Shown piece by piece: positions 18,334-46,674 of a stretch of 64,000 nt of DNA. Every line of letters starts with the position of its first letter. The first letter of the stretch is position 1. A program made the position numbers and the translations under genes. Origin of the DNA: an uncultured Oscillibacter sp. GTDB lineage: Bacteria; Bacillota; Clostridia; Oscillospirales; Oscillospiraceae. The notes under the pieces are model-generated. The model was not told where the DNA came from, ran no database searches, and was given only the letters and a program-made list of their open reading frames with translations. The stretch lies in NCBI RefSeq assembly GCF_910588175.1, contig NZ_CAJUQQ010000005.1; one strand, 5' to 3'.

Positions 18334-18540
18334 CGCGCCCCGCGCGCATGGGAAACGGTCCGGAAGGGCCGTTTTCCGCCCCCTGGGCGGACAGCGGACC
18401 TTCCGCCTCCAGGCAAGAGACATCCTACAACGTTGACAGAAATCATATGTCTCAGGGCCTTGGATTTTGTCACATCCTCCATTGACAGCGGCCCCGTTCC
18501 GGGTGTACGCTTTTATGCAACAAAGGAATACGGCAAACGG

Positions 18541-18830
18541 CGTTGATGGAGAAAAGTACCGGCGGGCGTTCCGCTCCAGTGAGCGGGGGACAGTGCAAAC
18601 CCCGCGCAAAGAGCCTCCGGGAAGAACACTCCGTAGCTCCAAGCTGAACCTGGGCGGAACACTCTCCCTCCCCCGGCAGTAGGCGCGGCGAGTTGTGATC
18701 GTTACCTCACACGGGCTTGTTGGAGCCTTGAAGGTGACCGCCCCCGGTGAGACGGGGAGGTAAATCAGGTGGCACCGCGGATAGCAGCTATTCGTCCTGA
18801 ATGTTCAGGAGATAGCTGCGTTTTTATTTT
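18541..18830 (+). promoter_or_regulatory. T-box leader (probable Asn specifier AAC) with a terminator/antiterminator
   Basis: Stem I start TTGATGGAGAAAAGTA. AG-bulge/distal loop CCAGTGAGC...CAGTGCAAA. Specifier region GGGAAGAACAC. T-box sequence AATCAGGTGGCACCGCGG at 18763-18780. Terminator hairpin at 18784-18819 followed by TTTTTATTTT. Confidence 0.85.
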
Positions 18831-27926: not shown

Positions 27927-29065
<1,139 letters not shown>

Positions 29066-29089
29066 GCTTCGTCTTCCGACCGTCTTTCA

Positions 29090-29123
29090 GGCCCCGCCGC
29101 TTTCAAAGCGGCGGGGCCTTTTT
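29090..29123 (+). terminator. rho-independent terminator of gap
   Basis: GGCCCCGCCGC-TTTCAAA-GCGGCGGGGCC followed by TTTTT. Confidence 0.9.
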
Positions 29124-29132
29124 CGCCTTTTC

Positions 29133-29161
29133 TTGCGGAGCGTGCCGGGATCTGGTATAAT
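29133..29161 (+). promoter_or_regulatory. sigma-A promoter of the type I toxin mRNA
   Basis: TTGCGG-N17-TATAAT with an extended -10 TGG. Confidence 0.7.
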
Positions 29162-29206
29162 GGCTCTGCCGTCCTTTCTCCGTCCCGTAAGTGGGAAGGA
29201 GGTGAA

Positions 29207-29223
29207 TTCCATGGACGAAGTGA
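29207..29223. repeat. direct repeat DRa (TTCCATGGACGAAGTGA) covering the toxin start codon; second copy at 29350-29366
   Basis: 17/17 identity read directly. A second shared block, TTCTTGTC, is at 29232-29239 and 29371-29378. Confidence 0.95.
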
Positions 29224-29306
29224 GGAACTTCTTCTTGTCCGTCGGCGCGGGCGTGATCTCGTATTACGTCTGCCAATGGCTCGACAAGCAGCGCAAAGGA
29301 CGGTAA
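29211..29306 (+). CDS. 31-aa hydrophobic peptide, Fst/PepA1-like type I toxin
   Basis: MDEVRNFFLSVGAGVISYYVCQWLDKQRKGR has one TM-like segment and a basic tail. QWLDKQRK resembles YWLSRRNTK of PepA1 and the WL..K/R ends of Fst homologues. GGAAGGAGG RBS 7 nt upstream. It is below the ORF-track length cut-off. Confidence 0.7.
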   Translation: MDEVRNFFLSVGAGVISYYVCQWLDKQRKGR

Positions 29307-29379
29307 ACATGGGAAACCCCGGGGAGCTGGCACTCCCCGGGGTTTCATTTTCCATGGACGAAGTGAAATTTTCTTGTCT
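29306..29379 (-). ncRNA. predicted antitoxin sRNA (RNA II-like), convergent to the toxin gene
   Basis: It would start about 7 nt after the minus-strand TATAAT. Its 5' end, AGACAAGAAAAUUUCACUUCGUCCAUGGAA, is complementary to the toxin start-codon region through DRa/DRb. It ends at the shared terminator. The ends are approximate. Confidence 0.6.
29314..29345. terminator. bidirectional rho-independent terminator shared by the toxin mRNA and the antisense RNA
   Basis: AAACCCCGGGGA-GCTGGCAC-TCCCCGGGGTTT, a 12-bp stem with A/T runs on both sides. Confidence 0.85.
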
Positions 29380-29385
29380 GCTATG

Positions 29386-29415
29386 ATTATACCATAGCCC
29401 TTTCATGTTATGCAA
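29386..29415 (-). promoter_or_regulatory. sigma-A promoter of the antitoxin sRNA
   Basis: The minus strand reads TTGCAT-N18-TATAAT with an extended -10 TGG. Confidence 0.7.
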
Positions 29416-29449: not shown

Positions 29450-29478
29450 TTGCCATTTGGGAAAGAATATAGTAGAAT
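29450..29478 (+). promoter_or_regulatory. sigma-A promoter of the SRP RNA
   Basis: TTGCCA-N17-TAGAAT. Confidence 0.65.
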
Positions 29479-29487
29479 AGCAAAAGC

Positions 29488-29626
29488 AGTCCTCCGCAGG
29501 CAGCTGCGGAGCCGGTCTCGCGCAATGAAGCTCTGCGAACCATGTCAGGCGGGGAACCGAGCAGCATTAAGCGGAATGTTTCATGTGCCGCGAGGCAACC
29601 GGCTCCGCAGCTGCGTGGGGAGGACT
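29488..29626 (+). ncRNA. ffs: signal recognition particle RNA (small, 4.5S-like, about 139 nt)
   Basis: Domain IV motif GTCAGGCGGGGAACCGAGCAGC...GTGCCGCGAGG parallels E. coli GUCAGGUCCGGAAGGAAGCAGC...GUGCCGGGAUG. The long terminal helix AGTCCTCCGCAGGCAGCTGCGGAGCCGGT pairs with ACCGGCTCCGCAGCTGCGTGGGGAGGACT. It has the classical position just upstream of dnaX. Confidence 0.85.
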
Positions 29627-29730
29627 TCCATTTCTTTCGGGAGGGAGCGCCCTCCCGCCGCGGGCCTGGGCGGCTTGAAAACAGGCGGACACGCTGAACG
29701 CTCCCAGAGGGAGGAAGGGGGAACCGGCCC

Positions 29731-46468: not shown

Positions 46469-46556
46469 GGAGAGATGTCCGAGTGGTTGAAGGAACCGGT
46501 CTTGAAAACCGGCGGCGCGCAAGTGCCCGTGGGTTCGAATCCCACTCTCTCCGCCA
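46469..46556 (+). tRNA. tRNA-Ser (anticodon UGA), CCA encoded
   Basis: Acceptor GGAGAGA/TCTCTCC. Anticodon loop CTTGAAA. Long variable arm. T-loop GGTTCGAATCC. Confidence 0.9.
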
Positions 46557-46581: not shown

Positions 46582-46674
46582 GCGGAAGTACCCAAGTGGC
46601 CGAAGGGGCTCCCCTGCTAAGGGAGTAGGCTGGATAAAACCGGCGCGAGGGTTCAAATCCCTCCTTCCGCGCCA
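46582..46674 (+). tRNA. tRNA-Ser (anticodon GCU), CCA encoded
   Basis: Acceptor GCGGAAG/CTTCCGC. Anticodon stem-loop CTCCC-CTGCTAA-GGGAG. Long variable arm. T-loop GGTTCAAATCC. Confidence 0.9.

Follow-up and report, generated by a model that had tools for sequence, protein, structure and literature searches.

In the par locus of the Enterococcus faecalis plasmid pAD1, a hairpin terminator lies between convergent promoters and a pair of direct repeats is read in opposite directions; the 5' end of the antisense RNA pairs with the translation initiation region of the toxin mRNA, in which a stem sequesters the Shine-Dalgarno (SD) sequence, and the toxin, Fst, is a peptide of about 30 residues with one transmembrane (TM) helix and a charged tail. 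According to the T1TAdb paper, an antisense RNA encoded 3' of the toxin mRNA, with no overlap with the open reading frame (ORF) and with an interaction outside the overlap of the two RNAs, is found only in Fst/RNAII and in SprA1/SprA1as of Staphylococcus aureus, the toxin of which is PepA1 (PDB 4B19). Par-like loci have been described as ubiquitous in Firmicutes, Clostridia included, with hundreds of Fst homologues, and Fozo et al. (2010) reported Fst-like sequences in Clostridiales such as Clostridium bolteae. We analysed 64,000 nucleotides of contig NZ_CAJUQQ010000005.1 (assembly GCF_910588175.1; this whole stretch is called the window below) from the high-GC (62%) chromosome of an uncultured mouse-gut Oscillibacter. 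As an earlier note on this DNA had proposed, the interval between gap and the signal recognition particle (SRP) RNA gene probably contains a par/Fst-like type I toxin-antitoxin (TA) module. Convergent promoter elements with a hairpin between them, a pair of direct repeats and a peptide with one modelled helix and a charged tail recur here, and the RNA pairing is predicted; a stem over the SD sequence appears in the predicted fold.

The module differs from pAD1 par in being chromosomal rather than plasmid-borne, in a start codon ATG instead of the GUG of Fst, in a weak U-tract on the antisense side, and in the YUNR loop motif, which is not universal among par loci and is not a feature of the family described here. 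In the peptide, PxxxG of Fst is replaced by SxxxG, Val by Trp, and the acidic tail by a basic one; the family to which it belongs has, unlike Fst of pAD1, a strongly conserved YY[IV]C[KQ]WLD block and reaches the cutoff of no curated Fst model. With SprA1/SprA1as the module shares an antisense gene located 3' of the mRNA and clear of the ORF, and a predicted interaction outside the overlap; PepA1 loci lie in staphylococcal pathogenicity islands, and PepA1 is known to be secreted and haemolytic. In E. faecalis, chromosomal par EF0409 likewise occupies a conserved intergenic site between housekeeping or metabolic genes, but it belongs to the PxxxG clade and its flanks are mannitol phosphotransferase system operons instead of gap and the SRP RNA gene. 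The type I TA systems of Clostridioides difficile (CD2517.1-RCd8, CD2907.1-RCd9 and others; NF047374) are also from Clostridia, have toxins with an N-terminal TM helix and a charged tail, and, like the family here, reside in prophages or mobile elements; by description these toxins differ in their length of 34-59 aa and their Lys-rich tails, the overlap of their antisense RNAs with the 3' end of the toxin mRNA is 131 nt or longer, and a direct-repeat mechanism has not been described for them. Against NF047374, with its 60-bit equivalog cutoff, the window peptide scores 12.9 bits (E=0.11). Ldr/Rdl of enterobacteria shares the superfamily signature, with Trp after the TM helix and then a charged tail, but there the antisense RNA faces the 5' end of the toxin transcript, and control is hok/sok-like, with a leader ORF. 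None of the Rfam antitoxin RNAs matches at its gathering score and permissive matches fall far under the cutoffs, as is to be expected because the direct repeats DRa and DRb show little conservation between one par locus and another.

Between gap, which ends at 29065 and is followed by a terminator at 29089-29125, and the SRP RNA gene at 29509-29608 (Rfam, 73.9 bits), downstream of which lies dnaX, the order of elements is toxin promoter, SD sequence, 31-codon ORF, hairpin, second copies of the repeats, and convergent promoter. The features are the following, with positions counted in the window.

29133-29138, plus strand: -35-like box of the toxin promoter, TTGCGG, with 3/6 matches to TTGACA
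29153-29161, plus strand: extended -10 element of the toxin promoter, TGGTATAAT, from sequence match and the rarity of TGNTATAAT
29168-29352, plus strand: predicted toxin mRNA, RNA I-like, about 185 nt, with ends placed from the -10 box, the hairpin and the T-run
29169-29177, plus strand: arm at the mRNA 5' end, CCGTCCTTT, which pairs with AAAGGACGG at 29295-29303; candidate helix sequestering the 5' end
29178-29201, plus strand: predicted stem-loop CUCC-G-UCCC-GUAAGU-GGGA-A-GGAG over the SD sequence, from the minimum free energy (MFE) fold
29198-29202, plus strand: SD sequence GGAGG, 8 nt 5' of the ATG
29207-29223, plus strand: direct repeat a, toxin copy, TTCCATGGACGAAGTGA, covering the start codon and codons 2-5; exact 17-nt repeat
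29211-29306, plus strand: toxin ORF of 31 aa, MDEVRNFFLSVGAGVISYYVCQWLDKQRKGR, stop codon included, from ORF translation and family membership
29232-29239, plus strand: direct repeat b, toxin copy, TTCTTGTC, codons 8-10; exact 8-nt repeat
29313-29346, in both predicted transcripts: GC-rich palindromic hairpin with a 14-bp perfect stem and the 6-nt loop CTGGCA; terminator call on the plus strand
29350-29366, plus strand: direct repeat a, downstream copy, TTCCATGGACGAAGTGA, the antisense template; exact 17-nt repeat
29371-29378, plus strand: direct repeat b, downstream copy, TTCTTGTC; exact 8-nt repeat
29308-29379, minus strand: predicted antisense antitoxin RNA, RNA II-like, about 72 nt if terminated at the hairpin, with an uncertain 3' end
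29386-29394, minus strand: extended -10 element of the antisense promoter, TGGTATAAT, from sequence match
29410-29415, minus strand: -35-like box of the antisense promoter, TTGCAT, with 3/6 matches to TTGACA and an 18-nt spacer

The two copies of TGGTATAAT face each other at a spacing of 233 nt, and this convergent pair is not a chance pattern, because TGNTATAAT is rare in the window (six occurrences, against 0.22 expected by chance). Both promoters were read in the earlier note with all four boxes correctly placed; its spacers of 17 and 18 nt need a qualification, since both run from hexamer to hexamer and include the TGG of the extended element. The 17-mer TTCCATGGACGAAGTGA has only two copies in the 64 kb even when up to three mismatches are allowed (0.10 expected); they lie in direct orientation, one over the toxin start codon and one beyond the hairpin, each followed by the shared block TTCTTGTC, just as had been described. 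The hairpin between them had been called a bidirectional terminator with a 12-bp stem: it is present, its stem consists of 14 perfect pairs, and the terminator program calls it on the plus strand only, so that the word bidirectional has no more than partial support. The gene for the family peptide is single-copy within the window.

Since it would be transcribed backwards over the start-region repeat, the antisense RNA would begin with some 30 nt that are complementary to the toxin mRNA between positions -4 and +28, start codon included; and since both RNAs carry the same palindromic hairpin, their loops are complementary too. A duplex prediction, which the earlier note had suggested as a check, gives -39.5 kcal/mol for the antisense 5' tail with the toxin 5' region, against -15.6+/-2.8 kcal/mol for shuffles. 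The predicted antisense RNA would run from 29379 to about 29308 and, given termination at the hairpin, would clear the end of the ORF at 29306; the predicted overlap of the two RNAs is limited to the hairpin region of about 40 nt.

The peptide belongs to a large family. A HMMER search of 1.84 billion cluster representatives returned 366 matches at E<=0.001, one of them a repeat artefact, corresponding to about 360 clusters of 27-33-aa peptides or of longer, mis-called ORFs that end in the peptide; the query of the homologous-protein search was the in-frame 57-aa version of the ORF. The consensus is M-x(4-5)-F-[IL]-L-S-V-x-A-G-V-x-S-Y-Y-I-C-K-W-L-D, followed by a short, usually basic tail. No Pfam or NCBIfam model reaches its cutoff on the family peptides, public sources leave members nameless or call them 'hypothetical protein', and the motif strings gave nothing relevant in a full-text literature search. 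Pattern scans located at least 472 family loci in metagenome contigs, mostly from human gut, and 96 in IMG/VR viral contigs, and 22 plasmid records carry the family without annotation. The GC content of the loci ranges from 0.25 to 0.65.

Some matches and gene models were rejected. The top HMMER match (P0009, 3733 aa), a repetitive G-T-Y-Y-Y-C-like protein in which profile positions 16-26 are matched 17 times, is the repeat artefact mentioned above; matches in Streptomyces (L022) and Nannocystaceae (L023), limited to QWLDKQRKG inside larger high-GC ORFs, were dropped. For the window gene, versions of 48 aa (ATG at 29160) and 57 aa (TTG at 29133) were discarded: the ATG at 29160 overlaps the -10 box, the extension translates the 5' untranslated region (5'UTR; predicted length about 43 nt), the ATG at 29211 is the one served by the SD sequence, and only close relatives conserve the extension. 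The 31-aa ORF with its ribosome-binding site thus stands as originally read, and many family copies in public protein sets (P0001-P0007) are mis-started because gene callers choose the 48- or 57-aa starts.

In 83 non-redundant family loci, the 200 nt past the stop codon were compared with positions -25 to +45 around the toxin start to look for features of the par architecture. Exact direct repeats, taking the longest at each locus, have a median length of 12 nt and reach at least 10 nt in 68/83 loci, compared with medians of 7 nt for reverse-complement and for upstream controls and a mean of 6.6 nt for shuffles; a length of 10 nt is attained by only about one in 80 of the controls of the first two kinds. 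The repeated sequence differs from locus to locus. Absence of the repeats from the loci of relatives had been named as grounds for refutation, and they are widely present. Among the 68 loci with a repeat, a perfect minus-strand TATAAT occurs within 41 nt past the repeat in 46, usually at a distance of 6-11 nt, compared with two for the plus strand and, as background, 0.02 per interval searched; only perfect TATAAT hexamers were counted, because a looser -10 score gave a high plus-strand control in AT-rich DNA. In 39/68 loci the interval from stop codon to repeat contains a perfect stem of 8 bp or more, against 3/68 controls, and an A-rich tract that would give the antisense RNA a U-tail precedes the hairpin in 32/68. 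An SD-like sequence is found in 80/83 loci at a median spacing of 8 nt. Convergent promoters, hairpin and start-region repeats therefore recur in the wider family, which bears out the comparison with par made in the earlier note.

Individual loci illustrate the same arrangement. In a metagenome-assembled genome (MAG) of rabbit-gut Clostridia (L021), the layout is built from an unrelated repeat sequence in a different genomic context, with a perfect minus-strand TTGACA-N17-TGCTATAAT promoter and a truly bidirectional terminator, and three plasmid loci repeat the layout with sequences of their own. The rabbit-gut module is in addition flanked by a direct repeat of about 80 nt (about 2380-2460 and 2745-2825) that holds a plus-strand TTGACA-N17-TA(C/T)AAT promoter and the antisense -35 box; the second copy precedes an unrelated 31-aa ORF, MARLMFGLIKTILPLVNPIRALHSRPPLLSR, an arrangement that hints at tandem small-gene cassettes.

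Complementarity between the two RNAs is specific to the cognate pair. This comparison, made without conditioning on the repeat, covered the 56/83 loci with a perfect minus-strand TATAAT and used the first 40 nt of the predicted antisense RNA: median duplex energy is -40.8 kcal/mol for cognate and -19.9 kcal/mol for non-cognate combinations, and the cognate toxin mRNA is the best partner in 47/56 loci. The paired zone extends from -10 to +22, with the start codon paired in 93-98% of loci.

In predicted folds the toxin mRNAs also tend to hide their SD sequences. Family-wide, the probability that the SD sequence is unpaired is 0.19, versus 0.31 for shuffled 5'UTRs, and is lower than in shuffles in 55/67 loci (p=1e-7). 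The earlier note had paired CUUUCUCC with GAAGGAGG in the window; the MFE fold of the predicted mRNA does contain this pairing, as CUCC (29178-29181) with GGAG of the SD sequence around an inner UCCC:GGGA stem. In the same fold a 9-bp perfect inverted repeat (29169-29177 and 29295-29303) joins the 5' end to the last codons. There is no co-variation in this helix because the Oscillibacter sequences are invariant there, and across the family such 5'-to-3' helices are a modest trend (at least 8 nt in 9/39 loci against 0/39 controls).

Oscillibacter species have inherited the module vertically at the gap/SRP site, where it lies in synteny. Public assemblies contain at least 53 blocks in which the exact peptide is called, with a constant gene order (asparaginase, gap, peptide, SRP RNA, dnaX, ybaB, DUF4127), and a scan of GTDB species representatives found four further species-level relatives with the module at the same site. 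In an alignment of six orthologous modules, both -10 hexamers (TATAAT) are invariant and the promoter spacers vary, the toxin -35 box is TTGCGG or TTGTGG and the antisense -35 box TTGCAT or TTGCGT. Changes in the hairpin stem are compensatory, GAAACCCC.../...GGGGTTTC versus GGGCCCCCC.../...GGGGGGCCC, as seen in L012. The downstream copy of repeat a co-varies with the toxin copy in L019, L020 and L021; in the lineage of L019 and L020, toxin GAAGT has become GCTTT and the downstream copy GCTAT, and GAAGCTTC is common to both copies. Among orthologues, codons 10-31 show five synonymous changes and one non-synonymous change, whereas codons 1-9, which lie under the repeat, show one synonymous and seven non-synonymous changes; thus the peptide core is under purifying selection and the start region evolves together with the antisense template. 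The loop CTGGCA (29327-29332) is replaced by its exact reverse complement, TGCCAG, in L012 and L017, with stems that are identical or compensated, which looks like inversion of the palindromic hairpin by template switching and puts the YUNR-like CUGG on the antisense RNA instead of the toxin RNA.

The peptide itself resembles Fst and PepA1. AlphaFold models it as one helix over residues 2-30 (pLDDT 87.9), in line with the earlier reading of a single hydrophobic helix and a basic tail. The published Fst/Ldr signature consists of P/D/S/T-xxx-G(C) inside the helix and a conserved Trp between the TM helix and the charged C-terminus; its counterparts in the window peptide are S10-VGA-G14, W23-L24 and the tail LDKQRKGR. 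The strict form [PDST]xxxG-x8-WL occurs in 87/156 family peptides and the relaxed form [PDST]xxx[GASN]-x8-WL in 140/156, with the spacing of Fst and PepA1; Trp is nearly invariant in the family alignment (A2) and stands at position 23 in 95 of the 140 signature-bearing peptides. When PepA1 is laid ungapped from Met1 on the window peptide, its P10-xxx-G14 and W23-L24 fall on S10-xxx-G14 and W23-L24, and both tails are basic; PepA1 differs by an identity of only about 16-20%, and the window peptide has no Cys after the Gly. A profile-profile comparison with hhalign aligned the family with Fst and PepA1 over 31 ungapped columns (score 24.5, local probability 86.7%, P=4.4e-6), against a shallow template of eight bona fide Fst/PepA1 sequences in two subgroups; the score was exceeded by 0/200 column shuffles and 1/200 core-only shuffles, and the reversed template gave 8.7. 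The likeness to Fst/PepA1-class toxins that had been noted from the tail therefore extends to the superfamily signature and to a profile similarity beyond composition. Against the PDB, the family profile found nothing even at E<=10. Beneath the YY[IV]CKWLD block the codons vary synonymously, Leu being encoded by five codons and Lys being split 36/35; this variation, with an SD sequence in 80/83 loci, argues for selection on the translated product. We conclude that the family is a divergent clade of the Fst/Ldr superfamily.

If the locus works like par, a sigma-70-type extended -10 promoter would drive the mRNA of about 185 nt for a 31-aa single-helix membrane peptide, a putative divergent toxin of the Fst/Ldr superfamily, and the convergent extended -10 promoter 233 nt downstream would drive a short antisense RNA. 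Pairing of the antisense RNA would block access of ribosomes to the toxin mRNA, and the SD-hiding stem, possibly together with the helix between the 5' end and the 3' end of the coding region, would keep free mRNA poorly translatable. When the supply of antisense RNA drops, the peptide would be made, insert into the membrane and arrest growth. On plasmids and prophages, the role of such modules is likely to be post-segregational stabilisation.

Several observations weigh against this reading. The window peptide has no match to NF033608 (type_I_tox_Fst) or to the Pfam models Fst_toxin and Ldr_toxin; among 40 members, six match NF033608 (best E=0.012) and five match Ldr_toxin (best E=0.013), all below threshold, and the family hidden Markov model (HMM) scores Fst and PepA1 at about 0-1 bits. 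Tails are net acidic in 20/113 members (e.g., ...KWLDGDE and ...KWLDEEE) and net basic in 84/113, a split within one family that mirrors acidic Fst of pAD1 versus basic PepA1 and could mean opposite membrane orientations or different targets. Both -35 boxes are weak, and with 3/6 TTGACA positions each neither was called by a generic promoter scan. The minus-strand tail after the hairpin, UUUCCCAUGUUUA, is a poor U-tract, which makes the length and 3' end of the antisense RNA, and the term bidirectional terminator, uncertain. For the window alone, sequestration of the SD sequence is not significant (probability unpaired 0.25, versus 0.31 for shuffled 5'UTRs). The window loop CUGGCA contains the YUNR-type CUGG, and YUNR loops are not enriched in the family (10/44, about seven expected by chance). 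Among the orthologues, toxin and repeat disagree at two positions, without compensation, in L012 and L013, and neither the hairpin nor the first half of repeat a is left in L018; accordingly, the module may be decaying in some lineages. The loss in L018 is a 46-nt deletion between two short CATGG repeats (about 2600-2640; columns 234-279 of alignment A3) that leaves the toxin ORF and both promoters intact, and could reflect a decaying module or an assembly artefact of the MAG.

Three other explanations were weighed against a TA module. The antisense RNA might tune a small membrane protein that is not a toxin, for example one that modulates a membrane complex, with no addiction or growth-arrest system involved. 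The juxtamembrane motif SYYICKWLD, nearly unchanged from Clostridia to Lactobacillales, suggests a specific partner and would suit such a protein, as would the vertical inheritance of the module in Oscillibacter; but members recur beside the replication genes of small plasmids and within the lysogeny modules of prophages, some contigs hold several copies, the Fst/Ldr signature is present, and translation is predicted to be silenced tightly and at several layers, as is typical of toxins; we regard a non-toxin role as unlikely. Another possibility starts from the minus-strand tail of the hairpin, which is called as a terminator on the plus strand only: the antisense RNA might read through this weak terminator and over the toxin ORF, forming a long perfect duplex that RNase III would cut, with the repeats being secondary. 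Such a mode would recall the long overlaps of the C. difficile RNAs, and 22/40 family members do match the C. difficile toxin model NF047374 weakly, via the hydrophobic segment (best E=1e-4). Repeats and cognate complementarity to the start codon would be needless for a read-through antisense RNA, yet they are conserved family-wide; A-rich tracts precede the hairpin in nearly half of the loci with a repeat, the rabbit-gut locus has a good bidirectional terminator, and no C. difficile phage match was found at E<=1. We therefore think read-through quite improbable.

That the arrangement is functionless, either a chance layout or an inactive leftover from an incomplete tandem duplication of the peptide gene at its 5' end, has the least to recommend it. 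The downstream repeat does resemble a truncated gene start (MDEVKFSCLL*), and the deletion between short CATGG repeats in L018 is in keeping with a remnant; against this, the same layout is made with different repeats in 68/83 highly diverged loci, a strand-specific promoter lies beside the repeat, both -10 boxes are invariant in orthologues, and the peptide is under purifying selection, so that lack of function is scarcely credible.

With the par/Fst-like TA module as the preferred reading, what is new here is the recognition of the Oscillibacter locus, the delimitation of a large clade that is absent from the libraries and has a sharply conserved motif, and family-wide computational evidence for a par mechanism; part of the YY[IV]CKWLD clade may already have been seen by Fozo et al. 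(2010). One intergenic oddity in Oscillibacter stands for about 360 clusters that protein and RNA family libraries do not see and that are often mis-started. It is conceivable, although we lean against it, that the YY[IV]CKWLD peptides are a distinct and uncatalogued major branch of Fst/Ldr, perhaps among the commonest type I TA families of the mammalian gut microbiome. Such a branch would span Oscillospiraceae, Lachnospiraceae, Clostridium, Lactobacillaceae and Streptococcus on chromosomes, plasmids and prophages, and its near-invariant juxtamembrane motif would imply that a specific, conserved target in the cell is recognised and that the membrane is not simply damaged in a generic way. The strongly conserved motif also gives a way into the question of what Fst-type toxins target. 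A curated protein HMM, combined with an architecture rule (hairpin, locus-specific repeat, convergent -10 element), would permit systematic annotation, and the many cognate-specific RNA pairs would be a natural set of orthogonal antisense regulators.

The family is common in gut metagenomes of humans and of animals. Because it is found on small plasmids and in prophage lysogeny modules, it probably helps to maintain mobile elements in gut Firmicutes. The plasmid hosts are Mediterraneibacter gnavus, Waltera, Clostridium perfringens, Ligilactobacillus salivarius, Streptococcus suis, Mogibacterium, Lactococcus raffinolactis and uncultured bacteria; the copies inspected closely adjoin replication (rep) genes of small plasmids. 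One copy in a viral contig is about 560 nt from a serine integrase and near a repressor. On the S. suis plasmid NZ_KX785329.1 (8.3 kb), a member with the full layout of repeat, hairpin and convergent -10 element (L186) lies beside rep and about 700 nt from tet(O/W/32/O), a mosaic gene for tetracycline resistance, which makes it a candidate stabiliser of a resistance plasmid.

Tandem or multi-copy arrangements are common in other taxa. Several contigs carry two different copies 1-1.3 kb apart (L027, L034, L040, L079, L142 and L165), and two family peptides stand in one frame within the called proteins P0010 (78 aa) and P0011 (100 aa).

Elsewhere in the window, the remaining Rfam matches are a T-box leader at 18534-18802 (94.5 bits; gathering score 93) and tRNA genes at 46469-46553 and 46582-46671; these are unconnected with the TA finding. 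Between the module and the SRP RNA gene, a TTGCCA-N17-TAGAAT promoter at 29450-29478 is divergent from the antisense promoter. The helix of the SRP RNA is extended by its flanks, where AGTCCTCCGCAGGCAGCTGCGGAGCCGG (about 29489-29516) pairs with CCGGCTCCGCAGCTGCGTGGGGAGGACT (about 29604-29631), and the full SRP RNA is probably about 145 nt long.

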